The notes beneath the pieces are model-generated. The model saw only the letters and a list, made by a program, of their open reading frames with translations. It made no database searches and was not told the DNA's origin. Of a stretch of DNA of 64,000 nucleotides, positions 6,981 through 49,492 are shown piece by piece (position 1 is the first letter of the stretch; every line of letters begins with the position of its first letter). Both the position numbers and the translations under genes were made by a program. Origin of the DNA: a virus; IMG/VR virus record IMGVR_UViG_3300040771_000127. One strand, 5' to 3'.

Positions 6981-6981
6981 T

Positions 6982-7713
6982 ATGCTAGTAAGTTTAAAAG
7001 GTATAAATAGTACCACCGCTAAAAAATTGGCTACTGAAAACTTAGGGCCAAAAGCTAGGTCTTTTTTAGGTTTAAATCCTGAGGAGTCTGAGTTAGAAGT
7101 AATCGATAGAAGTAAAAATAGGGCTATACGTGGTATAATAGCTCCCAAGGGTTATTCTCAGGAGAAAGAAATTCTGTTTTTCCAGTTTAATCCTAGTCAG
7201 ATTTCTGATTCTAAAGGTATGGACTGGTTTAGTTCTAAGTATCTAGGTTTCTCTGCGCCAGAACTATTTTGGACTGGAGGACAAGATCGCGTTATAACTT
7301 TCGATTTATTTTTTGATGCTACTACAGATAGTATCGCTTCTTCTATGGGTAGTAATACTAATGGGTATGATGCTATCAGAAGTAGGGACTCTATATACCC
7401 TAGAGGCGTTATGGATATGGTTGAGAAACTACAAGCTTTTCAATACCCTATTAATACAGAAAGTCCTAGATTTGTTGGTAACGTAGCTACACCAAGTCCT
7501 AAGTTTGAAGCTCCACCGATTCTTATTTTTTGCTTTGGATTATTTTACATGGAGTGCGCATTAACGGGGTTGCAGACTTCTTATGAACTTTTTGATACTA
7601 AACTTGTAGCTAGACGGGCTACTTGTAGTGTATCACTAACTGTTTATGAATTTTCAAGAGTAAACATTAATACTAATTTACCTCAGGTAACTAGTGAAAA
7701 CGAGATACGATGA
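6982..7713 (+). CDS. Tail/baseplate assembly protein (position of P2 gpU / Mu gp43-like)
   Basis: 243 aa, starting 1 nt after the tape measure stop. Call is by synteny only. Confidence 0.4.
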   Translation: MLVSLKGINSTTAKKLATENLGPKARSFLGLNPEESELEVIDRSKNRAIRGIIAPKGYSQEKEILFFQFNPSQISDSKGMDWFSSKYLGFSAPELFWTGGQDRVITFDLFFDATTDSIASSMGSNTNGYDAIRSRDSIYPRGVMDMVEKLQAFQYPINTESPRFVGNVATPSPKFEAPPILIFCFGLFYMECALTGLQTSYELFDTKLVARRATCSVSLTVYEFSRVNINTNLPQVTSENEIR

Positions 7714-8042
7714 TAAGCCCACAATTCTACACAAAAGAAAACAGGGTCAAGAGTTTTAGTTTTTCTAAGCTGAAGCACTACCCAAGGAAAAATTTAAGTT
7801 TCGCAGTAGGTTATACGCTTCACGAAGTTAAAGATGGTGAGGACTTATATAGTATTGCAGGTTATTACTTTGGTGAGTTTGGTGAGAGATACTGGACTAC
7901 TATAGCAGATGTTAATGACTTGTCTAAACCTGACTGGTTAAATACAGGTCAAGTTATAAAGATTCCTAGAGCAGTAGTAGAAGATAAAATTGATATAAAA
8001 ACCACTTATGATAGGAACGTTTCCACGGCAATTAAAATATGA
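7710..8042 (+). CDS. LysM-like tail protein (tail protein X-like)
   Basis: 110 aa. The segment GEDLYSIAGYYFGEFGERYWTTIADVNDLSKPDWLNTGQVIKIP looks like a LysM fold pattern. ATGA overlap with the upstream ORF. Confidence 0.55.
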   Translation: MISPQFYTKENRVKSFSFSKLKHYPRKNLSFAVGYTLHEVKDGEDLYSIAGYYFGEFGERYWTTIADVNDLSKPDWLNTGQVIKIPRAVVEDKIDIKTTYDRNVSTAIKI

Positions 8043-9878: not shown

Positions 9879-10079
9879 ATGCCTATACAATGGAACGCAG
9901 TAAAAGAATTGTTGGATGCAGCAGCTATCGAAGCTAGAACTAAAGACGATGTAGACCAAGCTTTAGAAGCCTACAATAATAAAGTTATAGAAGCTTTGCA
10001 GTTAATGATGGCTACTGCCCTTGTTAACGGAGGTGTTACTACGCCTAATGGACCTATAGCGGGAGGATTAATAACCTAA
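9879..10079 (+). CDS. Small baseplate-associated hypothetical protein
   Basis: 66 aa ORF inside the baseplate block. No PAAR motif seen. Confidence 0.45.
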   Translation: MPIQWNAVKELLDAAAIEARTKDDVDQALEAYNNKVIEALQLMMATALVNGGVTTPNGPIAGGLIT

Positions 10080-10113
10080 ATAATTTGTATATTAGCAACT
10101 AAATTAAACTACT

Positions 10114-10497
10114 ATGCGCGGATACATAAAAGACTCAGGACTAACATATAACTTTACCTTGGATAAGGGTAAATTCTCTTTTTTAACAGGTGCGCAAAAA
10201 AAGCGATTTGACCTTTTGTTCTTTATGGGTTTTGATTTTACAAGAAGAATATATCGCCCAGAGTTTAGACCCGGATTAAGTTGGGTAATTCAAAAACCAA
10301 TGAGCTATGTACAGGGCGTTCAGGTTTTACTACTGGGTAATTTAAAGAATAAAATACTTGCCTTTGTGCAAAACATAGATATTACTTCCATGGGTATAGG
10401 TAAGAGCAGGGTTGAAAAATCCTATTACATTACTGTGGAATATACAGGTATAGAAGATACCAATAAAGATGTACAACAACTTGTAACAGTAATTTAA
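10114..10497 (+). CDS. Baseplate wedge protein gpW/gp25-like
   Basis: 127 aa immediately upstream of the J-like ORF (1-nt gap). Size and synteny match gpW/gp25. Confidence 0.5.
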   Translation: MRGYIKDSGLTYNFTLDKGKFSFLTGAQKKRFDLLFFMGFDFTRRIYRPEFRPGLSWVIQKPMSYVQGVQVLLLGNLKNKILAFVQNIDITSMGIGKSRVEKSYYITVEYTGIEDTNKDVQQLVTVI

Positions 10498-16840: not shown

Positions 16841-17416
16841 ATGAAGGAACTAACCAACGACAATAGGGTTGAAAAAATAGCAGAACACTTTAAAGAGATT
16901 ATGTTATTACTAGGCTTGGATCTACAAGACGATAGTTTAAAAGATACACCACTAAGAGTTGCTAAGATGTATGTTAATGAGATATTCAGTGGTCTATTTA
17001 CTGAGCAGCCAAAGCTTACTTCTTTTGAAAACACTAAAGGTATAGATCAAATAGTTATAGTTAAAAATATTGAGATGACTTCTGTTTGTGAGCATCACTT
17101 TATGCCCATAGTAGGTAAAGTTCATATAGGTTACATACCTGATGGTAAAGTTTTAGGTTTAAGTAAGTTTAATAGAGTTGTACAATATGTTTCTGCTAGA
17201 CCCCAATTACAGGAACGCATTTTACAAGACATACACGGTATACTTACTCCACAGTTAGGAGAAAATATTATTATAGTGGCTGAAGCTGTCCACTTTTGTA
17301 GTTGTATGCGAGGTCCTAAAGATATGAGTTCTGCTACTGTCACTTCTTTAGCTACGGGTATGTTCCGTTATGACAAAAGTGTTAAAGATGAATTTTTTAA
17401 ACTTCTAGGCAAATGA
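16841..17416 (+). CDS. folE: GTP cyclohydrolase I (FolE)
   Basis: 191 aa with TPLRVAKMY and SVCEHHFMPIVGKVHIGYIP, the characteristic FolE active-site block. Confidence 0.85.
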   Translation: MKELTNDNRVEKIAEHFKEIMLLLGLDLQDDSLKDTPLRVAKMYVNEIFSGLFTEQPKLTSFENTKGIDQIVIVKNIEMTSVCEHHFMPIVGKVHIGYIPDGKVLGLSKFNRVVQYVSARPQLQERILQDIHGILTPQLGENIIIVAEAVHFCSCMRGPKDMSSATVTSLATGMFRYDKSVKDEFFKLLGK

Positions 17417-26513: not shown

Positions 26514-27929
26514 ATGGTAAAAGAATTCGTCATAGACTTATTTTGTGGTGCTGGAGGTACAGCTACCGGAATACATTTAGCTAATTGTGATAGTGAGGTA
26601 GTTGCTTGTGTTAACCATGATGCCAAAGCAATAGAAAGCCATAAACTCAACCACCCTAAAGCTGTACACTACACAGAGGATATTAGAAATCCTGAGGTAG
26701 TTGCCAAATTAAAAATACAAGTGCAAGAACTAAGGTATAAATACCCACTATGCGTAATTACTATTTGGGCAAGTTTGGAGTGTACTAATTTTAGTAAAGC
26801 CAAGGGCGGTTTGCCTAGGGATGCTGATAGTCGTACACTTGCGGAACACCTTAATATGTACGTGGAAGCTATTAATCCAGAATACCTAATGATTGAAAAT
26901 GTACAGGAGTTCATGAGTTGGGGTCCTTTAGATACTTTAGGTAAACCTATTAGTCGCTTCAAGGGTTCTGATTATACTGCTTGGGTAGACAGTATTAAAA
27001 AATATGGTTATGATTTTGACTATAGAATACTAAATTCAGCTGATTTTGGTGCGCCACAGTCGAGGAAACGTTACTTTTCTCAATTTGCTAAAATTGGTAT
27101 GCCTATAGAGTTTCCGTTGCCCACACACAATAAAAAAGGAACTGACGGACTTTTAAAACATTCGGCCGTTAGACACGTTTTAGATTTGACTGATATTGGA
27201 GCGTCCATATTCAATCGAAAAAAGTTGCACGTAGAGAACACACATAAAAGAATACTTGCGGGTCTAAAAAAGAGCGTAGTTTCTACAGATAAAGATTTTC
27301 TAACTACTTATTACGGTAGTGGAGCTTGTGTACATTCCGTTGATAGACCCAGTCCTTGCCTGACAACTAAAGACAGGGTTGCTAAGGTTCATTTTTTAAT
27401 GCTTAGTTACACTACAGGTGATAACGTTAAAGATATAGATGGTCCAGCAGGTACAGTAATGGTAAATGATAAGCACAATTTTGTTACCGCAGAACACTTT
27501 GTTTATAATCCTCAATACAAGAATACAGGCAGTAGTATTGAACGCCCTAGCCCTACAGTAATTGCTAGACAAGATAAAGCGCCACTTTATTTGATTAGTT
27601 ACGTTTTTGATAGTGAGTTGAAGATACCTATTTATGAGACAGACAATCCTACGTTAGTTAAGATCAAAGAATTCATGGCTGCTAATGGTATTGTAGATGT
27701 TCTTATGCGCCTTTTCTATGTTCCAGAGTTATTAGCAGTTCAAGGTTTCCCCAAAGATTACAAATTAGTAGGTACTTTAGCAGAACAGAAAAAGTTTATA
27801 GGTAACGCAGTAGAGACTACTATCGCTAAAAAACTATTCGAGGCGCACTCTAGTTCTATCGACTACTTAAGATCTTTAGACTCTGCCGTGCTAAGAACTA
27901 TGCTTTGTACTAATTTAATAATTGGATAA
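26514..27929 (+). CDS. DNA (cytosine-5)-methyltransferase with very large variable region
   Basis: Motif I DLFCGAGG, catalytic region WASLECTNFSKAKGG, motif VI MIENVQEF, motif VIII QSRKRYF, motif X IGNAVE near the C-terminus. About 240 aa lie between motifs VIII and X. Confidence 0.85.
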   Translation: MVKEFVIDLFCGAGGTATGIHLANCDSEVVACVNHDAKAIESHKLNHPKAVHYTEDIRNPEVVAKLKIQVQELRYKYPLCVITIWASLECTNFSKAKGGLPRDADSRTLAEHLNMYVEAINPEYLMIENVQEFMSWGPLDTLGKPISRFKGSDYTAWVDSIKKYGYDFDYRILNSADFGAPQSRKRYFSQFAKIGMPIEFPLPTHNKKGTDGLLKHSAVRHVLDLTDIGASIFNRKKLHVENTHKRILAGLKKSVVSTDKDFLTTYYGSGACVHSVDRPSPCLTTKDRVAKVHFLMLSYTTGDNVKDIDGPAGTVMVNDKHNFVTAEHFVYNPQYKNTGSSIERPSPTVIARQDKAPLYLISYVFDSELKIPIYETDNPTLVKIKEFMAANGIVDVLMRLFYVPELLAVQGFPKDYKLVGTLAEQKKFIGNAVETTIAKKLFEAHSSSIDYLRSLDSAVLRTMLCTNLIIG

Positions 27930-36429: not shown

Positions 36430-37617
36430 ATGTATTTAATAACTGTAGTTGAAGAACGCACGGGGTATAAGTTACGCCCAGTCGCAGGACAAGTAGATCC
36501 TGATGGCAATGATATTGATAATTCCATGAATGTTCAGGGAGACACCGCAATAAGATCACTACTAGGTGTAGGAGCAATTCTTTATGCACCAAAGTTAATT
36601 GCCCGAGGAAAGTACTACCAAACTGATGGAGTTTTCTGCTGTGATGCAGCCTTAGCAAAGGTACACTCGCTAACTTTAGCACCACCTGAGGGTCTAGAGC
36701 TTTACAATAAGTACTTAATGAGTGTTAAAAAAGGTAAACCCTTAAGTACGGTAGCCGAAATCGACAAGACTAGTTTTCTAGGTAAGTTAATGAAGCATCC
36801 TAAGTATGGTATTCCCGATTTTGAGGAAACTGGTTTTCACGTAGATAAAGACGACTGGTTCCTATTACTAAGGAATTTGAAACGCAAAGAAAGTACCATG
36901 ATTTATGGACCTACAGGTTCAGGTAAAACTGAGTTAGTAATGCTCATGGCTCAATCTCTTAAAGTGGACATAGAAATTTTTGATATGGGTTCTGCTTTAG
37001 ATCCTACCGCTACCCTTGTAGGTGTGCATAGATTAGAAGATGGTGCTTCCATATTTGACTATTCCAGATTTTACCATGCAATACAAAAACCAGGTATTGT
37101 ACTTTTAGATGAATTATCCAGAGCGCCAGAGAATACAACAAATTTATTGCTTCCTTGTTTAGATTCCCGTAGAACATTGTATACTGATATAGGTAGTGGT
37201 AAAGTAGCTAGAGAAGTTTCTGTACACCCTGACTGCGTTTTTATAGCTACCGCAAACGTAGGTAGTGAATACGTGGGTGTAAACTTACTCGATAAAGCTG
37301 TACTTTCTAGATTTTTTAAACTAGAGCTTGACTACCCTAGTAGAGAAATAGAAATAAGTATTTTGGAGAATCGTACTGGTATCGATAGAAAAGATGCTGA
37401 AACAGTAACTAAAATTTGCCAAGATATTAGAGGCGGTTATCTAAAGGGTACCTTATCTAGAGATGTGAGTATAAGAGAAAGTCTAAGTATAGGTAACTTA
37501 ATCAGGGATGGTTACGATACACTAACGGCACTAAAATTAGTTTTAATTCCTTGCTTTGAAGGTTCTGTAGATGGAGGAGACCGTTCTGTAGTACTTGCAA
37601 AAATAATAGCCCACTAA
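36430..37617 (+). CDS. MoxR/CbbQ-type AAA+ ATPase
   Basis: Walker A YGPTGSGKTE and Walker B VLLDELSRA. Paired with a downstream VWA protein. Confidence 0.75.
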   Translation: MYLITVVEERTGYKLRPVAGQVDPDGNDIDNSMNVQGDTAIRSLLGVGAILYAPKLIARGKYYQTDGVFCCDAALAKVHSLTLAPPEGLELYNKYLMSVKKGKPLSTVAEIDKTSFLGKLMKHPKYGIPDFEETGFHVDKDDWFLLLRNLKRKESTMIYGPTGSGKTELVMLMAQSLKVDIEIFDMGSALDPTATLVGVHRLEDGASIFDYSRFYHAIQKPGIVLLDELSRAPENTTNLLLPCLDSRRTLYTDIGSGKVAREVSVHPDCVFIATANVGSEYVGVNLLDKAVLSRFFKLELDYPSREIEISILENRTGIDRKDAETVTKICQDIRGGYLKGTLSRDVSIRESLSIGNLIRDGYDTLTALKLVLIPCFEGSVDGGDRSVVLAKIIAH

Positions 37618-37619
37618 CC

Positions 37620-39452
37620 ATGCCTAGACTATCACCAAAAACAAAAAGTATAGATTCCGAGCCTATACCTCTAGAACCAATATCGCCCCTAGAGGCACTA
37701 TTAGATAATTGGATCACCAAACGTGGCGATTATTTTGTTACCGCTTTCCTAGATAGTACAGTTATGTGGGAAGAAAAAATAGACATAGAATCAGTACCTT
37801 TTATCCAGTATTTAGTTACATCACTAAAGTTAGACAAGTTTTATAAAACTAAAGAGCTTATTAGAATAAAGGCTTTTGCTTTCGCTAGAAACACTCTTCA
37901 TTCAATAGATGTAAATACCTTGGAATATCATCTTAGAATTTCTGATGGTACTGATAGTTTTACGGACGGTAAAAAAATTGTAATATCAGGAAAAGTACTT
38001 GAACTAAAAGAGTCTAAGTATGAAGATCTAAGTGGTTATGATGTTTTCATTGGTTTAGCGTTGCATGAGGGTTGCCACATACTCTACACTGATTTTAAAG
38101 AGTACTCAGAATTCCTAGCGTCCAAAGATTTACCTAAGGGTGCTTCTGCCTTACTACATACAATTGTAAATATTCTAGAGGACGAACGCATAGAAAGAAA
38201 GTTGTTAGATAAATATCCGGGACACGGTAACTTTCTAGCACGCCTTAAGGAATACTACTTTGGGGGTATTAGAAAAAAAGACGAGTTGAGTGAGGAGGAG
38301 AATGTAACTGAATTTTTAAATTTATTTTTACAGATCATTAGATACCCAAAATACCTAGATAGTTTGCTTGTAGAGCGCTATATAGACTTACTGTTTAGTA
38401 TTAAAGAAATACTGCTACCCTACCCAGAGGAAATGGGTGAGTGTTTAGATAAATCTTATGAAGTTTTTGAACTTATACTAGAGTACTTTGATTTACGTTT
38501 TGAACGTGAAGAAGATGATGAAGAACTAGCTAAAGCTTCTGATGAAATATCTAAAGCAGGTGGTGGGGGTGTTTCTAAAATAGCCGTATCTTCTAGTGAA
38601 GACTCCTCTGACACTGGGGGTAGTATGCCTTCCAAAGGTAAGGAAGAATCAATATTAGATGGTGAGTATTCTTTCAGCGAAGAAGGTTTAAAAGTTCTAG
38701 CTGATAATAGTACTAAAGAAAAGTATAATGAAATACTGGATAGACTAAGAAAGTACTTGCCAGGTTTTAGACACTTTTTATTTTATAACACTTATGTTAA
38801 GCACAGAAATTTAGTGGGTTTAAAAAGTGGTAACTTAGATACTAATAAATTAGTTGAGGGTTTCCAAGGCGTGCAAAGTATTTATGCACGTAAAGAAAAG
38901 CCAGTACTAAAACGTTTAACAGTATCGCTATTAGTTGACATGAGTGGAAGTATGGGCGGTGATTGTATTAAAAGAGCTAGGGAGTGTGCCGTTTTACTTA
39001 CTGAGGTATTTTCTACTAATAAAATGGTGGATCTATATGTGTACGGATATACTGGTCAGGACATAACTAGTCATAAGGCTGAATTGTATGAGTACTACAC
39101 CCCTAAGAACCCTAGAAAGTACAGCCTTGTTAACATGGTTGCTAAATCTCAGAACTTGGATGGATTTTCACTATTGCAAATGAGAAACGAGATTAGAAAA
39201 GATACCAATAATGATGTTCTTACTTTTATGATTTCTGACGGAGAGCCTTATGCTACAGGGTACTCAGGTAGGGCAGCAATAGACCATTTAAAAGGGGCTG
39301 TTACCGAATTGGAGAAAGATAAATTTAAAATTATTCACATAGCTGTAGGCTACAGTGGTTTACCTGACGTATATAAAAATTTGGTACTGGTGGAAGATGT
39401 TGCTACCTTAGCAAATGATTTATACATATTGGTAAAGCGTACTATAAAATAA
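37620..39452 (+). CDS. VWA-domain protein with N-terminal HExxH metallopeptidase-like domain (CobT/NorD/DUF2201-like)
   Basis: HExxH in GLALHEGCHILY, followed by ILEDERIE. MIDAS motif LLVDMSGSMGG in the C-terminal half. Starts 2 nt after the MoxR stop. Confidence 0.7.
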   Translation: MPRLSPKTKSIDSEPIPLEPISPLEALLDNWITKRGDYFVTAFLDSTVMWEEKIDIESVPFIQYLVTSLKLDKFYKTKELIRIKAFAFARNTLHSIDVNTLEYHLRISDGTDSFTDGKKIVISGKVLELKESKYEDLSGYDVFIGLALHEGCHILYTDFKEYSEFLASKDLPKGASALLHTIVNILEDERIERKLLDKYPGHGNFLARLKEYYFGGIRKKDELSEEENVTEFLNLFLQIIRYPKYLDSLLVERYIDLLFSIKEILLPYPEEMGECLDKSYEVFELILEYFDLRFEREEDDEELAKASDEISKAGGGGVSKIAVSSSEDSSDTGGSMPSKGKEESILDGEYSFSEEGLKVLADNSTKEKYNEILDRLRKYLPGFRHFLFYNTYVKHRNLVGLKSGNLDTNKLVEGFQGVQSIYARKEKPVLKRLTVSLLVDMSGSMGGDCIKRARECAVLLTEVFSTNKMVDLYVYGYTGQDITSHKAELYEYYTPKNPRKYSLVNMVAKSQNLDGFSLLQMRNEIRKDTNNDVLTFMISDGEPYATGYSGRAAIDHLKGAVTELEKDKFKIIHIAVGYSGLPDVYKNLVLVEDVATLANDLYILVKRTIK

Positions 39453-42453: not shown

Positions 42454-42756
42454 ATGGCGCAAGATTCAGAAAACTCAAAAGTTTTTAAAGTGGCTTCTAC
42501 TACCAGTTGTACGGTACTAGCCTCTGGATTATTCAAAGAATTAACTAAAAGTCCTCCAACAGAGTTACGTGTTAGAGCTGTAGGTGCTTCCGCACTTAAC
42601 CAAGCTATAAAAGCTGTAGCTAATTTAAACAGTTTATTGGCTTCTAAAAATAAGTGGGCTTCTGTAGTTCCTTATTTTGACCAAGTTAAATTTCCTGATT
42701 CAGATAAGCTGTACACCGTACTGGAGATGAAATTAATACTACACGAGGTATGTTAG
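42454..42756 (+). CDS. SpoVS-like (Alba-fold) nucleic-acid-binding protein
   Basis: 100 aa. FKVASTTS...VLASGLF...LRVRAVGASALNQAIKAVANLN is collinear with Bacillus SpoVS (LKVSAKS...AIGAGALNQAVKAIAIAR), from memory. Confidence 0.65.
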   Translation: MAQDSENSKVFKVASTTSCTVLASGLFKELTKSPPTELRVRAVGASALNQAIKAVANLNSLLASKNKWASVVPYFDQVKFPDSDKLYTVLEMKLILHEVC

Positions 42757-43142
42757 GAAAATTTGTTTACTTAGAAAAATTTCAAGATGGTATAAGAATG
42801 GTACTTGAATTATCTATTAATGGTAACAAGATTAAAGCTCTTATTGACACGGGTGCTTCTGTAAATTACTTTTGCAGTTCGCTTAAATTTTTAGAGGTAA
42901 ATAAAAAAGACTATGCCAGTGTTACTGGTTTCACGGGACATACTAAAAGAGCGTACGGTATCAAGGTATTTAAAACAGATCTACTAGACTTGGAGTTCTC
43001 CAATTTTTACCAGTTAAGTTTAGATCACCTAGGTGTTAACTGCGTTATGGGTATTGACTTTTTAGTTAAGAATGGTATTCAGTTAAACATTCCAGAGTGC
43101 AACTATGAAAAAATTACGGGCGTAAATGTAATTGTATTGTAA
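42750..43142 (+). CDS. Retropepsin-like aspartic protease
   Basis: 130 aa, the size of a retropepsin monomer, with the catalytic signature KALIDTGASVNYF. Overlaps the SpoVS-like ORF by 7 nt. Confidence 0.6.
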   Translation: MLGKFVYLEKFQDGIRMVLELSINGNKIKALIDTGASVNYFCSSLKFLEVNKKDYASVTGFTGHTKRAYGIKVFKTDLLDLEFSNFYQLSLDHLGVNCVMGIDFLVKNGIQLNIPECNYEKITGVNVIVL

Positions 43143-43243: not shown

Positions 43244-43393
43244 ATGAAAAATGTACATTTTTTAACAACTGGAGCAGGTGCAGCTAAAGCACCCGCTAAA
43301 AAAACACCAGGTAAAAAAGCACCAGCTAAAAAAGCACCTGCTAAAAAAGCACCTGCTAAAGCACCTGCTAAAAAAACTAGAGTTAGAAAGTAA
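43244..43393 (+). CDS. Histone H1-like Lys/Ala/Pro-repeat protein (49 aa)
   Basis: MKNVHFLTTGAGAAKAPAKKTPGKKAPAKKAPAKKAPAKAPAKKTRVRK, encoded by a ~15-nt tandem DNA repeat. The track ORF starts at a TTG upstream. It has its own terminator. Confidence 0.5.
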   Translation: MKNVHFLTTGAGAAKAPAKKTPGKKAPAKKAPAKKAPAKAPAKKTRVRK

Positions 43394-43476: not shown

Positions 43477-44157
43477 ATGGATTCGATTCTACTATTTTCG
43501 GCGGGTAAGGAAAGTCTATACCAGTTACACCATAAACAAAAAGTGATAGGCAAACTTATTATGTTTGACTACGGACAACTTTCTTTTCCAGCAGAGTTTA
43601 CCTCACTTAGGTATTATGCTAAACTTTACGATAAACCGTATCAGGTAATCAAACTAGACTTCTTTATTTTACCACCAGCAATAAAAGATGGTATTGACTG
43701 CAATCCTTACGTAGCGCAAAGAAATTTAGTTTTTTGTAGTATTGCGCTATCTCTTGCAGAAGTAGGCGGTTATAAGAAAGTATTTTTAGGAGCCGTAGCT
43801 GATGCAGTAGATTTCGATGGTTCTCCAAGATTTGTAGATGATATGAATTACCTACTAGCTAGTAGTAGTGTAAAAGTCGAAAGTTTTTCTCGTAGGTATA
43901 CTACAGGACAGATACTTGCTTCCCTAGTAAAAAATAAAGTAGACATATCCCACCTTTGGAGTTGCGATAATCCCAGAGATGCACCTACATTTTGTGGATC
44001 TTGTGCTAAGTGTACTAGTGCTTTAAGAAACCTCAGAGACCATTATTCCAATAATAAGTTAGTTAGAAAATTCTACGACCAGAAATATAAAAATTCGGAC
44101 ATCCTAAATGTTTTAAGTTATGAGTTTGGACAGGAGCAAAAAATATGCGAGCGATAG
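43477..44157 (+). CDS. queC: QueC-like protein (7-cyano-7-deazaguanine synthase family) with variant PP-loop
   Basis: Collinear with QueC: LLFSAGKES (versus VFSGGQDS), MFDYGQ, VAQRNLVF, and the zinc site WSCDNPRDAPTFCGSCAKC. Confidence 0.65.
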   Translation: MDSILLFSAGKESLYQLHHKQKVIGKLIMFDYGQLSFPAEFTSLRYYAKLYDKPYQVIKLDFFILPPAIKDGIDCNPYVAQRNLVFCSIALSLAEVGGYKKVFLGAVADAVDFDGSPRFVDDMNYLLASSSVKVESFSRRYTTGQILASLVKNKVDISHLWSCDNPRDAPTFCGSCAKCTSALRNLRDHYSNNKLVRKFYDQKYKNSDILNVLSYEFGQEQKICER

Positions 44158-45076
44158 TAATAAGGATAAGGCAGTAATGTTTTTTTCCGCTTCCTCTTAC
44201 AAGGATGCTCTAGCAGTACTAGATTCAGGTATAAATGATATTCTTACTTCCTACCACTATATAATGAAGCGTGAAAAAGGTTTCACTGAAGACGTAATGC
44301 CCCGTATAAAAGCTAACGGAGGTTTATTTATGACAGATAGTGGTGCGTTTACTTTCTTTGCTAAACCTACTCCTGAGATGTACACCGAAGAATACTGGGA
44401 ACCCTATATTGAAGAGTACGTTAAGTTTCTACGAGATAACGCTCACCAAATTTATTGTGCGGCTAACATGGATATTGATATTTTTGTAGGTCAAGAAATT
44501 GTAGATCGCTGGAACAAAAAGTATTTTGAACCTTTAAAAGGTATTGTTCAGATAGTTTACATTGTGCATGGTAATAAAGCTATACGTAGAGATGATGAAT
44601 ATGGAATAAAACGCTTTAAAGAATACGCAGCTAAATATGAATACTTAGGTATGGGTTCTTCTATGTTTAAGAAAAACTCTCGTTCAGACAACCGTTACTA
44701 CGCCCTTGCTAGGTTGCTTAAAGTTAGGCTACATGGTTTTGGTTGGACTTCTATTCCCTCTTTAAAAGAGTTTCCTTTCTTTAGTGTGGATTCAACTACT
44801 TGGCTTGGGGGTGTTCGTTATGGAACTACCTATACCTATGATGGTGCTAACGATAGAGTACTGGACCACAAGAAAAAATTTAGACGTAAGGGTATGAAAT
44901 CCTTATGTAAAGATTTAGGAATAAATCACGAAAACTTGTTATTAGAGAAGAGGGATGAAATAAATGCACTAAATTTGTATGGATGGAAAGGTTTTAGGTT
45001 TGAGTTTCTTAAGGCCGCCAATACTAAATTAAAGTATAACCCAGCACGTAGTTACGCTAAATACCTAGAAAAATGA
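44120..45076 (+). CDS. dpdA: DpdA-like DNA guanine transglycosylase (TGT fold)
   Basis: 318 aa between queC-like and queE. GGLFMTDSGAFTF resembles the TGT DSGGFQ pocket motif. An alternative start is ATG 44177 (MFFSASS). Confidence 0.55.
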   Translation: MSLDRSKKYASDSNKDKAVMFFSASSYKDALAVLDSGINDILTSYHYIMKREKGFTEDVMPRIKANGGLFMTDSGAFTFFAKPTPEMYTEEYWEPYIEEYVKFLRDNAHQIYCAANMDIDIFVGQEIVDRWNKKYFEPLKGIVQIVYIVHGNKAIRRDDEYGIKRFKEYAAKYEYLGMGSSMFKKNSRSDNRYYALARLLKVRLHGFGWTSIPSLKEFPFFSVDSTTWLGGVRYGTTYTYDGANDRVLDHKKKFRRKGMKSLCKDLGINHENLLLEKRDEINALNLYGWKGFRFEFLKAANTKLKYNPARSYAKYLEK

Positions 45077-45378
45077 GAAGTACTGTAAAACAACATAAGA
45101 GAAAAGTCAAGAACAAAGTAGTAACCGTTACTAGGCACGCTAGAGGTAAGTACGGTAAAAAACCTAAGAATGATAAATACCCACCTAGAGATAACGCTAG
45201 TGTTGACCTTGCCACATTGCAGGCACACTATAAAAAGTATCAAGAGGAATTTACTAAGCTACTCAATGGACAATTAACTTCTAGTGACCAACATAAAAGT
45301 TTTATTGCCCGTAGACTAAGAGCAGCCGCTAGAGCAATAAAGTTAAAACAAAAGAGAAACAAAAATTCGGATAACTAA
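45073..45378 (+). CDS. Very basic small protein
   Basis: 101 aa, rich in Lys/Arg at both ends (KQHKRKVKNKV..., ...KLKQKRNKNSDN). ATGA overlap with the dpdA-like ORF. Confidence 0.5.
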   Translation: MRSTVKQHKRKVKNKVVTVTRHARGKYGKKPKNDKYPPRDNASVDLATLQAHYKKYQEEFTKLLNGQLTSSDQHKSFIARRLRAAARAIKLKQKRNKNSDN

Positions 45379-45394
45379 TTAGAAACACTTTATT

Positions 45395-45988
45395 ATGCTA
45401 ACACTACCAAAATTTATTAAGCGCACAAAAAATTCTTACCACACTATTAAGCCTTACGTAGCTGAGGTTATTTTCACACCCGATGAATGTAAAATATTAG
45501 TCGAAGCAATTACTTCCAGTCAAGTAGGTAATAGGGAATTTATACCAGGTAAAGAGGGAAAAGATTCTAGTCGTTACGATTTAGATAGTACCAAGTATGC
45601 TTGGGTATACGCTCGTATTTATGAATTTATGTTGAAAGCCAACAAAGAGAATTTTGGTTTAGATCCTAATTTTTGTTTGTCAGAGCCAGTATACCTTAAT
45701 GAGTATAAGGGTAAGGAGTACTGCGGTTGGCATACAGATGGTTTTATATCTGATGGTGAAAAATACCTTTACAGAAAACTTACTTGCGTAATTCAGATGA
45801 GTGAACCTAAGGATTACACTGGAGGAGATTTTGAATTGTTTTCTTACCATGCAATACACGAAGATATTAGACCTATTGGTACTGCCTACATTATACCGGC
45901 TTTCGAGTGGCACAGAGTTACCCCTATTGAAAGTGGTACTAGAAGAAGTTTAATAATGTTTCTTGAAGGAACAGAACGCTTAAAATAA
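45395..45988 (+). CDS. 2OG-Fe(II) oxygenase (prolyl-4-hydroxylase-like)
   Basis: HxD...H...R facial triad context: CGWHTDG, FEWHRVTP, TRRSLIMF. Confidence 0.7.
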   Translation: MLTLPKFIKRTKNSYHTIKPYVAEVIFTPDECKILVEAITSSQVGNREFIPGKEGKDSSRYDLDSTKYAWVYARIYEFMLKANKENFGLDPNFCLSEPVYLNEYKGKEYCGWHTDGFISDGEKYLYRKLTCVIQMSEPKDYTGGDFELFSYHAIHEDIRPIGTAYIIPAFEWHRVTPIESGTRRSLIMFLEGTERLK

Positions 45989-46827
45989 TGCCTAGAAAAA
46001 GTAAACGTTTAGAAGAAGCAATAGTATCTGTAGAGGAAGTATCTCCAGAATTACTAGATAAAACACCTAAAAAAGAAGTCTCCCTTATACTTAAGGAAGG
46101 GGAGTTTATGCATGACCTAGTTGGTGAGATAACAGAAGTTGAGGACTTACGTAATGTTGTCTGTCCTTTCTACAAAAACGGTAGAGCTGTTAAATGTATA
46201 GGCTGTAAAAAAGAAGATGATATTGTAGAAGGTTGCAAGGAGGAACTAATAGCCGGTTTATTACGTAGACCTACTTACGGACTTTCGGGAGCCTTTTATG
46301 ATACTGCATTTGATTTGCCCATAGTGTTACCTAGGGTAGCAAAAGTTTCTGTATTAGACACAGTAGCAATGGGATTGATTTGTAATACTTGTCACGTTTC
46401 AGACAATTGCCCACTTTATGTAGAGAATCATGAGTGTGGTATTGACTGGAAAGAGGGAGTAGACACCACAGACACAAAAGCTGTCTTAGGCCACATGATT
46501 GACTTACAGATGCAGCGCGTTACTCGTGCTAGAAATATGGAGTTAATCGATGGTGGTATGCCTGACCAAACCACTTCGGGAGAAATGGATCGCCTTACGG
46601 GTCTTATAGGTATGAAAGACAACTTGGATGCTGACCGATTTTCTGTTCGTATTGATGCCAGTAGTAAGAGTGGTAGCGAAGGCGGCGGAATACTCGCTAA
46701 ACTTTTCGGAGGTGGAGGTAGTGGTAGTAATACCGAGAATCTCCCTGAGTTAGAAGCTAAAACAATTGATTTTGAAGAACTGGAAGTAAAACCCGCTACC
46801 AAAGATAAAAGAAAAAAAGATGAATAA
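45988..46827 (+). CDS. Cys-rich hypothetical protein with Gly-rich tail
   Basis: 279 aa with clusters CPFYKNGRAVKCIGCKKEDDIVEGC and CNTCHVSDNCPLYVENHEC, and GGGILAKLFGGGGSGS near the C-terminus. Confidence 0.5.
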   Translation: MPRKSKRLEEAIVSVEEVSPELLDKTPKKEVSLILKEGEFMHDLVGEITEVEDLRNVVCPFYKNGRAVKCIGCKKEDDIVEGCKEELIAGLLRRPTYGLSGAFYDTAFDLPIVLPRVAKVSVLDTVAMGLICNTCHVSDNCPLYVENHECGIDWKEGVDTTDTKAVLGHMIDLQMQRVTRARNMELIDGGMPDQTTSGEMDRLTGLIGMKDNLDADRFSVRIDASSKSGSEGGGILAKLFGGGGSGSNTENLPELEAKTIDFEELEVKPATKDKRKKDE

Positions 46828-47560
46828 GTTAAGACTAAACACTATCTACATTACCTATCAAGGTGAGGTAAACCATTTCGGAATCGGTACTCCCGTAATC
46901 TTTTTACGTTTACAAGGATGTCCTATTCGTTGCTACAAAGATACTATGGGTGTTCTTTGTGACACTCCAGAGGCTTTAGAAAAAGGTACTAGCAACTCTC
47001 TTGAGGTTACTGAAATAGTAAACCGATTAAAAGACGTTAAGAAGTACACAGGAATTAATCTTATCTGTTTAAGTGGTGGAGACCCTCTTTGGCAGAATAA
47101 GGAATCACTACATGATTTGTTTCAGCAGTTAGAGGCGAATAAATTTAATGTGAGTGTTGAGACTTCGGGAGTAATATCTATAAAACCTTACAGTAAGTAC
47201 AAGAATGTTTTTTGGGTAGTTGACTATAAATTATTGTCTGCAGGTGTAAAGACAGATTTCCATAAAGATAACTACGCTACCCCTGAGGGAACTATTATAA
47301 AATTCGTTGTTTATGACGAGGCTGATTTAGCTGAGGCTATACACATATATAGACTGGGTGTGTTTAGTTTAAATACTAAATTTACTTTTGGTTTATATTG
47401 GGGAACTACAAAAATCACTTACTCCGAATTAACGGGTCGCCTTGTACGGGAGAATATGTTAGGCCTAGTAGGGGTAAATTTCCAAGTACATAAAATGGCT
47501 GAGTTTTATGACCAAAACAGTGTAGCTGCCCATGAAACAGTAGTTAGAGCTAAAATTTAG
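46820..47560 (+). CDS. queE: 7-carboxy-7-deazaguanine synthase (QueE, radical SAM)
   Basis: IYITYQGEVNHFGIGTPVIFLRLQGCPIRCYKDTMGVLCDTPEA is collinear with the QueE N-terminus (SIQGEG..G.P..F.R..GC...C..CDT), but the cysteine spacing is C-x3-C-x8-C. Confidence 0.75.
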   Translation: MNKLRLNTIYITYQGEVNHFGIGTPVIFLRLQGCPIRCYKDTMGVLCDTPEALEKGTSNSLEVTEIVNRLKDVKKYTGINLICLSGGDPLWQNKESLHDLFQQLEANKFNVSVETSGVISIKPYSKYKNVFWVVDYKLLSAGVKTDFHKDNYATPEGTIIKFVVYDEADLAEAIHIYRLGVFSLNTKFTFGLYWGTTKITYSELTGRLVRENMLGLVGVNFQVHKMAEFYDQNSVAAHETVVRAKI

Positions 47561-47633
47561 TTTCAGAATATTTAATTTGATTATTAATTTAGGTTTGTGT
47601 ATAATTACATATTCCAATAAAAACAAGTAGCCC

Positions 47634-48068
47634 ATGTTTACGGAATCCACTATCATTAAAGATTACCATTTTTATACTGCTCACAGGAACGAAAACTTAC
47701 GAGATAAATGTCGTAATATCCACGGACACACGTACTATCTAAAAATAGGTTTACGCTTTTTAACCTCTGAATTTAATGTAGAATCAGGTATTTACTTAAA
47801 CTTTAATGATGTGGATGCCCACATGGAACCTTTAGTTAAATCTTTAGATCATGCAACACTAGTATCTAAAAAAGATTCCCTACTTGTAGAGTGTGTTAGT
47901 CAATACCCAGATATTTTTGGCAAAATAGTTTTAATGCCCGAAGCTACTTCTGTGGAGAACTTAACACAATTTATTGCTAATTTAATACGTACAACACCGC
48001 TAGGTAAGAACCTAGCTTTTATATCAATTAAAGAAACAACCACATCGGAAGTAGTTCTTAACTTCTAA
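47634..48068 (+). CDS. queD: 6-carboxy-5,6,7,8-tetrahydropterin synthase (QueD)
   Basis: 144 aa with YHFYTAH...CRNIHGHTYYLKI (the HGH zinc/catalytic block of the PTPS/QueD family). Confidence 0.75.
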   Translation: MFTESTIIKDYHFYTAHRNENLRDKCRNIHGHTYYLKIGLRFLTSEFNVESGIYLNFNDVDAHMEPLVKSLDHATLVSKKDSLLVECVSQYPDIFGKIVLMPEATSVENLTQFIANLIRTTPLGKNLAFISIKETTTSEVVLNF

Positions 48069-48083
48069 AAACAACAAATTTTT

Positions 48084-48950
48084 ATGGAAAGTAAACCTAA
48101 TTTAGCTATCGGGGAAGTAGTCTTGTTCCCTATTGAAGATGGTTCCTATTTAAGAGGAACTATATTATCATTCTTGCGTTCAGATAAAAAAGCTCGCATA
48201 GAAGAAGAAATTACAGGAGATATATACAAGTGTCCTACTGTTTCCTTAGACAAGATAGTTAGTAATGATGTCAACTGGAGATTTAAGTATTATGAAGATT
48301 TAGCCACACTCACAATTTTTAAAGAGCTTAAAAGTATTTTCGTTGCTGGAGAGGGAGGTCTTGGTAAGTCCTACATAATACAACAAATTTTAGAGAGTGA
48401 GGAGTTTCGTGAAGATAGAGATTACGTGTACGTTAAAGGTCATGTGTCTGCTTACGCTTTATTTCAGTTATTACAAGATCACCCGAGCAAACCTTTCATA
48501 TTTGATGATTGCGATGGGATATTAAAAGATCCTATAGCTTTAAATATTCTTAAAGGTGTTATTGATAGTTACAGTGTACGTAAAGTTAAATGGCTTACTA
48601 ACTCGGGAGTTGCTTCTAGGGTAAGTAGAACCTTTGAGTTTACAGGATCAATAATATTCCTATCTAATTTAAACGTTGAGAATGTACCGCAACCTATAGT
48701 TTCTAGAACTACTATGGTAGATGTTTCTATGACTAGTAAAGAGAAGATGGAACGTATGCGCCACATTGTAAAGCACATGCCAGAGATGGAAGCCATTAGT
48801 TTAGTTGACAGAGAAAAACTCCTCGATATTCTAGACAGTTATAAAATGATTGTAAAAGATTTCAACTTGCGTAGTTTAGTAAAAGCGGCAAATATGTTTA
48901 ATAAAACAGGCGACTGGTCTTACGTTAAAGCAAGTATTTTAGCCTCGTAA
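48084..48950 (+). CDS. P-loop NTPase with N-terminal Tudor/SH3-like domain
   Basis: Walker A VAGEGGLGKSY and Walker B PFIFDDCDG. The N-terminus is IGEVVLFPIEDGSYLRGTILSF. Confidence 0.5.
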   Translation: MESKPNLAIGEVVLFPIEDGSYLRGTILSFLRSDKKARIEEEITGDIYKCPTVSLDKIVSNDVNWRFKYYEDLATLTIFKELKSIFVAGEGGLGKSYIIQQILESEEFREDRDYVYVKGHVSAYALFQLLQDHPSKPFIFDDCDGILKDPIALNILKGVIDSYSVRKVKWLTNSGVASRVSRTFEFTGSIIFLSNLNVENVPQPIVSRTTMVDVSMTSKEKMERMRHIVKHMPEMEAISLVDREKLLDILDSYKMIVKDFNLRSLVKAANMFNKTGDWSYVKASILAS

Positions 48951-48961
48951 AAGTAATAACC

Positions 48962-49237
48962 ATGGGAATAATAGTAAAGGGCAGTATAAATTTTGTAGTT
49001 GAGATTCAAGGTAATGACTTACACTTATACAAAGAAGTAATTCAGTTACTCGCTAGACGCGAACCAGTAGCTATGGAAGACCTAGAAATCCTATTCGGTT
49101 TATCAGGTATGGTTATTACTAGTAGTACAAAACGTGAACAACAAGAAATAGCTACGCACGCTAATTACAAAAATCTAGATAGCACATTTAATAGAGTAGT
49201 TTACTTAAATATGGACTGCTCAGAACCTACTAAATAA
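48962..49237 (+). CDS. Hypothetical protein (paralogue of 49244-49492)
   Basis: 91 aa. LHLYKEVIQLLARREPVAMEDLEILFGLSGMV aligns with the next ORF. Confidence 0.55.
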   Translation: MGIIVKGSINFVVEIQGNDLHLYKEVIQLLARREPVAMEDLEILFGLSGMVITSSTKREQQEIATHANYKNLDSTFNRVVYLNMDCSEPTK

Positions 49238-49243
49238 AGTTAT

Positions 49244-49492
49244 ATGCGTACTATAATTAGGTTACAGTTAGATCTAGAAGCCGACCTAACCCCACATTTA
49301 CAGGAAGTTTTACAAAACTTTGTGCATAGAAAGCACATACATTTTGAGGAATTAGATTTTCTTGTTGGGCTGTCCAGAAGAGTTTGTCTTTTAAAAGAAG
49401 CCAACTTCTCCCATTCCGCAGTTGCCTTAGATCCCTACGCTTTACCAATAAAACTTTTGGAAATTAAATGCAGTTTATCAGATGAAAGTTAG
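49244..49492 (+). CDS. Hypothetical protein (paralogue of 48962-49237)
   Basis: 82 aa, with TPHLQEVLQNFVHRKHIHFEELDFLVGLSRRV. Confidence 0.55.
   Translation: MRTIIRLQLDLEADLTPHLQEVLQNFVHRKHIHFEELDFLVGLSRRVCLLKEANFSHSAVALDPYALPIKLLEIKCSLSDES

Follow-up and report, generated by a model that had tools for sequence, protein, structure and literature searches.

A phage cassette with a putative two-gene DpdA and a divergent QueC-family protein, predicted to place a 7-deazaguanine base in phage DNA

Introduction

The pathway to 7-deazaguanine bases and the principle of their exchange for guanine in DNA are already known (PMC6884629, PMC10516641, PMC10164549), and the deazaguanine derivatives described number eight and the subfamilies of phage DpdA four (PMC10516641). 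These modifications shield phage genomes from restriction enzymes and, for phage Iggy in vitro, from Cas9 (PMC6884629, PMC10484667). The DpdA of Iggy is an experimentally validated DNA transglycosylase that inserts 2'-deoxy-7-cyano-7-deazaguanosine (dPreQ0) (PMC10484667), and the catalytic residues of the Salmonella DpdA are Asp95/Phe99, Asp130 and the nucleophile Asp256 (PMC10164549). Here, these systems were compared with a gene island at positions 43477-48950 of a 64,000-nucleotide stretch of viral DNA (IMG/VR virus record IMGVR_UViG_3300040771_000127); "the window" hereafter means this whole stretch. The island encodes a DpdA-like barrel protein, a separate Cys-rich protein and enzymes of deazaguanine synthesis, and the phage probably uses this operon to put a 7-deazaguanine base into its own DNA in place of guanine by means of a DpdA encoded as two genes.

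Materials and Methods

The proteins of the window were searched with the hidden Markov model (HMM) libraries of Pfam, NCBIfam and PHROG. The sample of related loci comprised 66 IMG/VR relatives (loci are designated L followed by a number), two GenBank phages and three metagenomic contigs. Co-occurrence was counted over 72 sources by running profiles built from the window proteins against the open reading frames (ORFs) of the sampled loci. Four extra relatives (L160-L163), with a DpdA-N identity of 51-57%, were added after this count. A megablast search of phage genomes gave no match to near-identical DNA.

Results

Core Genes of the Island

A preliminary description of this DNA, made from its letters alone, had proposed a 7-deazaguanine DNA-modification island with FolE, QueD, QueE, a QueC-family protein and a TGT-fold DpdA (TGT, tRNA-guanine transglycosylase). 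The ORF listing of the window gave every island ORF of that description at the same coordinates on the + strand, and the HMM searches bore out both the island and the calls of FolE, QueD, QueE and the QueC family (Pfam, NCBIfam and PHROG). The placement of ORF 44120-45076 in the TGT/DpdA group also stood, by its PHROG match, its similarity to the Iggy enzyme and its catalytic aspartates, with no match in the curated Pfam and NCBIfam libraries. The core genes are the following:

16841-17416, + strand: FolE, GTP cyclohydrolase I (Pfam 8.2e-55; NCBIfam 220 bits)
43477-44157, + strand: divergent QueC-family ATP-pyrophosphatase, 226 aa (Pfam QueC 7.3e-14; PHROG "QueC-like" 5.5e-19)
44120-45076, + strand: DpdA-N, predicted barrel subunit of a split transglycosylase (phrog_887 1.3e-33)
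45988-46827, + strand: DpdA-C, acidic Cys-rich protein, 279 aa (phrog_887 5.8e-17)
46820-47560, + strand: QueE, predicted radical S-adenosylmethionine (radical-SAM) synthase of 7-carboxy-7-deazaguanine (CDG) (NCBIfam QueE 5.9e-23; phrog_2076 3.9e-26)
47634-48068, + strand: QueD, 6-carboxytetrahydropterin synthase (Pfam PTPS 9.2e-17; NCBIfam QueD 2e-16)

Neighbouring genes of the island lie close together: they overlap by 38, 4, 1 and 8 nt or are separated by 16-73 nt, and this packing suggests a single operon or transcription unit.

The Barrel Protein DpdA-N

The similarity of DpdA-N to the validated Iggy DpdA was detected by tblastn (E = 2e-8, 24.5% identity over 71% of the query) and by blastp (3.7e-14, in a small local database), and its identity to DpdA1-type proteins was 24-28%. 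The PHROG family that it matched, phrog_887, is annotated as "queuine tRNA-ribosyltransferase". An AlphaFold2 (AF2) model built from a 54-sequence alignment was a beta/alpha barrel of high predicted quality (predicted local distance difference test, pLDDT, 93.2; predicted template modelling score, pTM, 0.91). When this model was compared by Foldseek with predicted viral structures, annotated phage TGTs were recovered at 1e-8 to 1e-5, together with a protein of Vibrio phage nt-1 (6.5e-6) and one of Cellulophaga phage phiST (5e-3), the last two presumably being the DpdA2 and DpdA3 of the literature.

Four residues of DpdA-N were invariant among the 54 sequences, namely D73 (in TDSGAF), D118, H205 and D224 (in DSTTW), and F77 and H150 were conserved in at least 90% of them. 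Matched by motif rather than by superposition, D73/F77, D118 and D224 would correspond to Asp95/Phe99, Asp130 and Asp256 of the Salmonella enzyme, and the spacing D73-F77 equals that of Asp95-Phe99. Inteins typically occupy conserved functional sites. In eight related loci (L002, L045-L050 and L053), an intein splits the nucleophile motif precisely, as DS|TTW; the intein-bearing DpdA-N ORF (732 aa; 6986-9184 in L002) matched both Intein_splicing (2.6e-23) and LAGLIDADG_3 (7e-09). From these sequence and model comparisons it was concluded that DpdA-N is probably the catalytic subunit of a DpdA-group transglycosylase, nearest to DpdA1 by sequence and yet apparently part of a distinct long/split lineage.

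HNH homing-endonuclease genes were also seen within or beside the cassette in L001 (3633-4637) and L163 (6988-7470), and one HNH_3 match was found among the window ORFs. Together with the inteins, they suggest that the deazaguanine cassette is a preferred place of insertion for selfish elements.

The C-Terminal Half as a Separate Gene

The island had also been described as interleaved with unassigned enzymes. It is less so than that description implied: the 279-aa Cys-rich ORF, counted among them, is by its homology no extra enzyme, since it is the C-terminal half of DpdA itself, homologous to the C-module of long single-chain DpdAs. A single PHROG, phrog_887, was matched by both ORFs, at profile positions 9-272 of 509 by the N-ORF and 360-487 of 509 by the Cys-rich ORF. 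Both homologies were united in one ORF of ~510-710 aa in 18 loci (28-35% identity), and also in phages BCD7 and BRock, and the halves were separate ORFs in 53 sources. The two forms were collinear by blastp: residues 12-312 of the window N-ORF aligned with approximately 35-330 of the fused proteins, and residues ~110/130-250 of the C-ORF with their last ~120-135 residues (601-735 of 757 in Bacillus phage BCD7 gp021, 356-477 of 500 in Streptomyces phage BRock gp36 and 544-678 of 689 in L056).

A recoded in-frame stop was considered as the origin of the split and ruled out, because the two halves lie in different reading frames in 52 of the 53 separated pairs; where adjacent, they are spaced by -38 to +49 nt. 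Other genes are inserted between N and C in the window, L003, L004, L005 and L161, in which the split is otherwise the same as in the relatives. In an exhaustive profile search, the C-module was found in 781 representative clusters (50% identity). About 75 of these were stand-alone proteins of roughly 250 aa with a full-length match, and the fused ones numbered in the hundreds. Among the matches listed, most of the weaker ones were limited to the second of the Cys clusters and the helices that follow it, at the C-terminus of proteins of 350-850 aa.

DpdA-C is acidic (isoelectric point, pI, 4.9) and, in keeping with the Cys-rich label of the preliminary description, has eight cysteines, which form two clusters of four. 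The cluster C59/C70/C73/C83 was conserved only in the split clade, and the cluster C132-x2-C135-x5-C141-x8-C150 in all forms, split and fused. Further conserved motifs were GIDW, ERVxR, DGGxPD and SxEMDRL. In TGT enzymes, the segment that follows the nucleophile aspartate holds the zinc site. Both TGT and bacterial DpdA have a large insertion after this aspartate (PMC10164549). Since this insertion bears the zinc site and DpdA-N contains only two cysteines, DpdA-C may, by analogy, act in trans to bind a metal and DNA or a partner, and the N and C products would form a heteromeric enzyme.

In addition, the Gly-rich and probably disordered tail of DpdA-C carries the motif G-G-[ILM]-L-x-[KR]-[IL]-F (window positions 46690-46730, residues ~232-242), which is also present in L001, L002, L056, L072 and L074, in split and fused forms alike. 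It resembles a docking peptide, and reading it as clamp-binding-like would be speculation only.

Conservation of the Cassette

Among the 72 sources, DpdA-N co-occurred with DpdA-C and with the QueC-like protein in 71 each, with QueE in 70 and with a SpoVS-like small protein in 69. FolE was found in 37 of the 72, within the retrieved flanks only, and QueD in 21. For three further genes of the island the counts were 23/72 for a very basic 101-aa protein (probably an undercount for so short and low-complexity a sequence), 5/72 for a 2-oxoglutarate (2OG)-Fe(II) oxygenase and 4/72 for a P-loop protein. Public records label the proteins of the split clade "hypothetical" throughout.

The Precursor Enzymes and the QueC-Like Protein

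The folE gene lies 27 kb upstream of the island, within the replication module. Its product passed the curated cutoffs of NF006824 (220.1 versus 202 bits) and TIGR00063 (193.9 versus 181.6 bits) and matched Pfam GTP_cyclohydroI with 185 bits (8.2e-55). QueD carries CRNIHGH at residues 26-32. The QueD signature is CxxxHGH, as opposed to LxxxHRHxF in DpdL, a QueD paralogue proposed to decarboxylate CDG (PMC10516641). The DpdL signature is absent from the window QueD; because this protein is canonical, the DpdL decarboxylase route to 2'-deoxy-7-deazaguanosine (dDG) does not apply here and was dropped. The best NCBIfam matches of QueE were four QueE models over the full length (5.9e-23, 2e-21), all below the equivalog cutoffs (81.7 versus 300). 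Its radical-SAM motif, G-C-x3-C-x8-C-D-T, has a six-residue insertion relative to Cx3Cx2C and is conserved in the whole split clade; in BCD7, in Iggy and in the majority of the fused-DpdA clade, QueE has the canonical C-x3-C-x2-C.

The QueC-like protein (43477-44157) belongs to the QueC family by Pfam (PF06508, 52.2 bits versus a cutoff of 22; 7.3e-14), and the profile of its family matched Bacillus subtilis QueC (3BL5) at 1.8e-48. Nevertheless, it scored only 32.8 bits against the QueC equivalog TIGR00364, below the cutoff of 150.3 bits. The scores against this model (bits) were the following:

CAjan 243; phiSM 234; L041 232; Rosebush 154
Iggy 141; Campylobacter QueC* 140; immuto 122; BCD7 102
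L006 43; Bacteroides phage BS162P1 (L001) 35; window 33

The phage QueCs of known chemistry thus span 122-243 bits, against 33 for the window. Pantoea phage MED16, considered as a further reference for a QueC linked to dADG (2'-deoxy-7-amido-7-deazaguanosine), was unusable, as it encodes only DpdA.

The canonical QueC signature comprises SGGxDS, YxQxHxxE, VPxRN, YPDC, C(x)8CxxCxxC and an essential Tyr after the first Cys (PMC13329287). In Escherichia coli QueC, the mutants Y35A, R99A, Y131A and Y189A were inactive and Y131F was partly active (PMC13329287). The corresponding motifs of the window protein, SAGKES, YGQLSFPAE, VAQRN, F-DGS and C-D-(x)8-CxxCxxC, depart from this signature. YGQLSFPAE reads as YGQ(x)5E, with Ser in place of the motif His and the Glu one residue later. 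The protein keeps Y32, Q34, R82, N83 and the Zn cysteines, and it has lost H39, P97, the PDC triad and the tyrosine that corresponds to Y189. The His, VPxRN, the PDC triad and the Tyr are all kept in the phage QueCs of 7-cyano-7-deazaguanine (preQ0) chemistry (CAjan, phiSM, Rosebush, Iggy and immuto), and the Campylobacter QueC*, linked to dADG, deviates mildly. With Cap9, the window protein has in common the YxQ(x)5E spacing and, following the first Zn cysteine, an acidic residue. PADLOC gave no Cap9- or QatC-specific match for the window; its generic QueC model, which did match, matches canonical QueC equally well.

Accessory and Flanking Genes

The remaining genes in and around the cassette, and a second DNA-modification gene, are listed below:

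26514-27929, + strand: C5-cytosine DNA methyltransferase, 471 aa (Pfam DNA_methylase 1.9e-29, the match being spread over residues 6-445)
42454-42756, + strand: SpoVS-like small protein (Pfam SpoVS 2.5e-12)
42750-43142, + strand: retropepsin-like aspartyl protease, 130 aa (gag-asp_proteas 1.9e-06; DTGA motif)
43244-43393, + strand: Lys/Ala-rich 49-aa protein, pI 12.0 (composition; conserved N-terminus)
45073-45378, + strand: very basic 101-aa protein, pI 10.9 (profile homologues in relatives)
45395-45988, + strand: 2OG-Fe(II) oxygenase of PKHD/P4H type (Pfam 2OG-FeII_Oxy_3 1.9e-08; phrog_61 4.8e-22)
48084-48950, + strand: P-loop NTPase (phrog_1250 1.1e-36)

The SpoVS-like gene, which lies outside the limits 43477-48950 first given for the island, is the most consistently co-conserved non-enzymatic partner of this DpdA, and it is a candidate nucleic-acid-binding partner. 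It was also found in BCD7 (gp031, annotated "sporulation protein"), L160, L161 and L163; none was found near the DpdA genes of Iggy or BRock. The N-terminus of the 49-aa protein, MKNVHFLTTGAG, is conserved with L003, L004 and L006. Of 13 split-clade loci sampled, 12 had a small basic low-complexity ORF, rich in K, A, G and R, between their SpoVS-like and QueC-like genes.

The preliminary description had proposed the genes interrupting or following the core as tailoring or targeting candidates, and they fared differently. The 101-aa protein, which is very basic as had been stated (28 K+R against 7 D+E), matched no Pfam or PHROG family and is a recurrent cassette member in the wider clade, usually placed after DpdA-C (homologues, for example, in L001 at 7705-8025, in L002 at 9932-10249 and in L161). 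The oxygenase is at best a weak candidate (see section "Discussion"). The P-loop protein was sporadic, present in 5 of 76 sources (window, L003, L006, L041 and L160). Beyond phrog_1250 it gave only weak AAA+, clamp-loader and DnaC-like matches, and the "Tudor-like" N-terminus once ascribed to it found nothing meaningful in Pfam. The SpoVS-like, 49-aa and 101-aa proteins are probably conserved accessories of a DNA-binding type, and the oxygenase and the P-loop NTPase would be lineage-restricted add-ons outside the core.

The retropepsin-like gene, odd for a tailed phage, sits between the SpoVS-like and QueC-like genes, and was also seen in L003, L004, L006 and L163. Downstream of the P-loop gene, the small neighbouring ORFs 48962-49237 and 49244-49492 (+ strand) have similar middle segments (EDLEILFGLSGMV versus EELDFLVGLSRRV) and may be tandem paralogues. 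Upstream of the cassette lie a MoxR/CbbQ-type AAA+ ATPase (36430-37617, + strand) and then a CobT-like VWA protein (37620-39452, + strand); a CobT-like protein occupies the equivalent position in L005 and L161.

The phage itself is contractile-tailed, has a G+C content of ~35% and carries every gene on one strand. Domain searches identified a tail-sheath domain and a contractile injection system (CIS) tube protein among its tail genes, and the replication module comprises a SNF2-type helicase, FolE, RNase H, the C5-cytosine methyltransferase, DnaB, primase, Pol A and RecA. This methyltransferase, a DNA-modification gene independent of the deazaguanine genes, was the only methyltransferase matched by Pfam in the window ORFs of at least 90 aa.

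Discussion

Proposed Pathway

The reading favoured here, held with somewhat better than even confidence, is that the operon serves to put a 7-deazaguanine base in place of guanine in the DNA of the phage itself, through a two-gene DpdA. By homology, FolE, QueD and QueE would convert GTP into CDG, and the QueC-family enzyme would activate the CDG carboxylate with ATP to give the base to be inserted, its product being uncertain, with a base other than plain preQ0 slightly favoured. The DpdA-group transglycosylase would then exchange this base for G in the phage DNA after replication. DpdA-N would be its catalytic part, with D73 as the general acid/base, F77 four positions on as its aromatic gate, D118 as the second Asp, for base recognition, and D224 as the nucleophile. 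It would assemble with DpdA-C as a heteromer, to which the C-subunit would contribute metal binding and the binding of DNA or a partner.

Several observations weigh against this reading or against a non-standard base as its product. DpdA-N had no match in Pfam or NCBIfam and no TGT match in the PDB, either by phmmer or with a 13-sequence profile, and Foldseek comparison of its model with the PDB returned generic TIM barrels only (template modelling score ≤0.46), with no TGT in the top 50. The sequence negatives carry little weight, because the validated Iggy DpdA likewise has no Pfam match, and the same applied to the BCD7 DpdA. The AF2 model of DpdA-C, from 9 sequences, was unusable (pLDDT 43), so that its fold and metal binding, like its interaction with DpdA-N, are inferred only. 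The Campylobacter QueC* retains both His39 and Tyr189, and their loss is therefore not an established marker of amide formation. The same split DpdA accompanies a fully canonical QueC in L039 and L041, and this type of DpdA can thus evidently, to judge from these gene sets, work with preQ0 producers. The identity of the product base is beyond computational decision and here a matter of pure inference. Finally, the position of the oxygenase, where there is one, is in every case inside the stretch bounded by the QueC-like gene and DpdA-C, which hints at something other than a random passenger.

Alternative Explanations

The alternative that survives best, though rated well short of even, is an ordinary dPreQ0 system, in which the divergent QueC-like protein still makes preQ0 and the basic protein, the oxygenase and the P-loop protein are unrelated passengers. 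The gene set of dPreQ0 phages, FolE, QueD, QueE, a QueC-family protein and DpdA, is that of the window (PMC6884629). The canonical QueC of L039 and L041, the Y32, Q34, R82, N83 and Zn cysteines retained in the window protein, the sporadic P-loop gene and the oxygenase relatives unlinked to deazaguanine genes all fit this explanation. It is opposed by the QueC-like protein, with its equivalog score far below those of the phage QueCs of known chemistry, SAGKES instead of SGGxDS as its P-loop motif, and no motif His, PDC triad or essential Tyr (the Y189A mutant of E. coli QueC is inactive). This divergence is the best evidence for a non-standard base and points slightly away from plain dPreQ0; the preliminary description had already supposed that the base may not be plain dPreQ0, and that supposition is upheld on this ground, of which it had made no use. 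As the inserted base, preQ0 and an amide (7-amido-7-deazaguanine or one related to it) appear about equally likely. Taken by product, dPreQ0 and dADG each seem possible at the same level, appreciably below even, and something else is a little less probable.

A tailored hypermodification is unlikely. Here the oxygenase would oxidize the 7-substituent or the inserted base and, with a glycosyltransferase (GT)-like protein in L005, give an undescribed derivative. The oxygenase is clearly of its family (Pfam 35.6 bits versus a cutoff of 27; PDB 3dkq 1.7e-08), and its H113, D115, H173 and R183 (HxD...H...R) were invariant in five sequences, the intact motif being kept down to a DpdA-N identity of ~51%. 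Its place inside the QueC-like-to-DpdA-C interval was kept through four arrangements (N-basic-2OG-C, N-GT-like-2OG-C, N-2OG-C and QueC-2OG-N-C). Known tailoring enzymes (QueF, ArcS, Gat-QueC, DpdM and DpdN) are missing from the window, as had been observed earlier: Pfam found no QueF, ArcS, GATase, DpdM-like or formyltransferase domain in ORFs of at least 90 aa of the 64-kb window, which covers all but about 17 kb of the 81,286-nt source contig. The distribution of the oxygenase speaks against such a role. It was confined to the nearest relatives of the window, in 7 of the 9 loci with at least 50% DpdA-N identity; of the extra relatives, L161 and L163 have it, but it is absent from L160 and L162 of the same subclade and from ~65 more distant DpdA loci. 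Its family, phrog_61, is generic (230 phage records, mostly of cyanophage and pelagiphage), and no deazaguanine gene was found in the 80 best IMG/VR loci (765 kb) that encode oxygenase relatives. Among solved structures, those nearest to it are PKHD-type hydroxylases, for which no nucleic-acid substrate is known, and no substrate of PiuC or YbiX was found in the literature. In L005, a 310-aa ORF (6932-7864) adjoins the oxygenase between the DpdA halves, and its glycosyltransferase group 1 match (3.7e-04) is below threshold. A tailoring role of the oxygenase is accordingly rated as improbable.

A more elaborate scheme, also doubtful, combines these elements: a Cap9-like, amide-forming QueC would make 7-amido-7-deazaguanine or an N-substituted amide, the two-subunit DpdA would insert it, the 2OG enzyme would oxidize it in the subclade of the window, and the GT-like protein would act as well in L005, which would give an undescribed base across a large, unannotated phage clade.

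A target other than DNA, whether carboxydeazaguanylation of proteins in the Cap9/QatC style (for example, of basic proteins) or tRNA modification, is highly improbable: the QueC-like protein does have the Cap9-type YxQ(x)5E and Cys-acidic variants and the cassette does encode two very basic small proteins, but those homologues of DpdA-N whose function is known act as DNA transglycosylases (Iggy; PMC10484667), the module belongs to a phage replication region with the full CDG pathway, PADLOC gave its generic QueC model only, and CD-NTase, QatA, QatB and QatD are not present.

Significance

Relative to the literature found, the new elements are the barrel and the Cys-rich module as separate genes, the SpoVS-like partner and the non-canonical QueC-family and QueE proteins; no description of a two-gene DpdA with its C-module, the SpoVS-like partner, the Cx3Cx8C QueE and the remodelled QueC was found in that literature, which did not cover the subfamily tables of PMC10516641. 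The family is abundant, with 148 word-indexed relatives of DpdA-N besides the stand-alone DpdA-C clusters, and if the product is indeed not preQ0, the clade could yield the next deazaguanine derivative. In the collection searched, cultured members came only from the hosts Bacteroides and Bacillus, and with two such phages, BS162P1 and BCD7, the proposal is directly testable. Furthermore, the split offers a natural handle on the role of the non-catalytic module of long DpdAs, be it metal binding, DNA targeting or partner recruitment.

Comparison With Known Systems

Cap9 and QatC share with the window the QueC fold, in which Cap9 forms an amide from CDG in an ATP-dependent manner and does not go on to the nitrile. 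Their targets are protein N-termini, and they belong to defence operons of bacteria that also encode a CD-NTase or QatABD, whereas the window QueC-like gene stands beside a phage DNA transglycosylase gene, and the YxDC motif of Cap9 is absent from its product.

In the DpdA/DpdB/DpdC system of Salmonella Montevideo, as predicted for the window, a TGT-like barrel exchanges guanine in DNA through a pair of double-displacement aspartates (PMC10164549). Its transglycosylase also needs a second protein, DpdB, which is a ParB-like ATPase, whereas the partner in the window would be a Cys-rich non-ATPase module. In Salmonella, dADG is made on DNA via DpdC and the system is linked with restriction genes; the window has neither of these features.

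In Campylobacter phages of the CP220 type (DpdA3 with QueC*), dADG replaces all G, and the QueC variant has been proposed to stop at the amide (PMC10516641). These phages are thus a precedent for an outcome other than preQ0. Their DpdA3 is remotely similar to DpdA-N (the phiST match given above), and their QueC*, at 140 bits, is nearer to the canonical type.

The DpdA1-type systems (Escherichia phages 9g and CAjan, Pseudomonas phage Iggy) have the same complement of FolE, QueD, QueE, a QueC-family protein and a DpdA TIM barrel as the window, with the Asp motifs DSGAF and DS(S/T)(S/T)W in common. Their DpdA, as in Iggy, consists of one protein of ~300 aa and has no C-terminal Cys module, whereas that of the window comprises two genes. 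Their QueC is canonical, at 141-243 bits versus 33, and Iggy, unlike the window, has no SpoVS-like gene near DpdA.

The cassette of BCD7 comprises gp031 (SpoVS-like), gp028 (QueD), gp027 (QueE), gp025 (QueC-like), gp022 (FolE) and gp021 (a 757-aa DpdA). It shares with the window the DpdA lineage with N and C modules, the SpoVS-like partner and a non-canonical type of QueC (YGQKNRIQE and SCN in BCD7). Its DpdA is a single chain that contains a long linker of low complexity, instead of two genes, its QueE has the canonical Cx3Cx2C in place of Cx3Cx8C, and it is without the 2OG oxygenase, the basic 101-aa protein and the P-loop gene, all three of which the window has. No report on the DNA chemistry of BCD7 was found in the searchable literature.

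Another counterpart of the window is Bacteroides phage BS162P1 (OP172706), in whose record the cassette genes are all annotated "hypothetical". Its QueC-like protein represents a second divergent type, in which SGGxDS is kept, YxQ is absent, and APDK and SCY are present. The N and C genes are adjacent in BS162P1, with the basic gene after C and no 2OG oxygenase in the cassette, whereas in the window they are interleaved with other genes. BS162P1 and some 50 metagenomic relatives share with the window the split DpdA, the SpoVS-like protein, a basic protein of ~105 aa and the Cx3Cx8C QueE.

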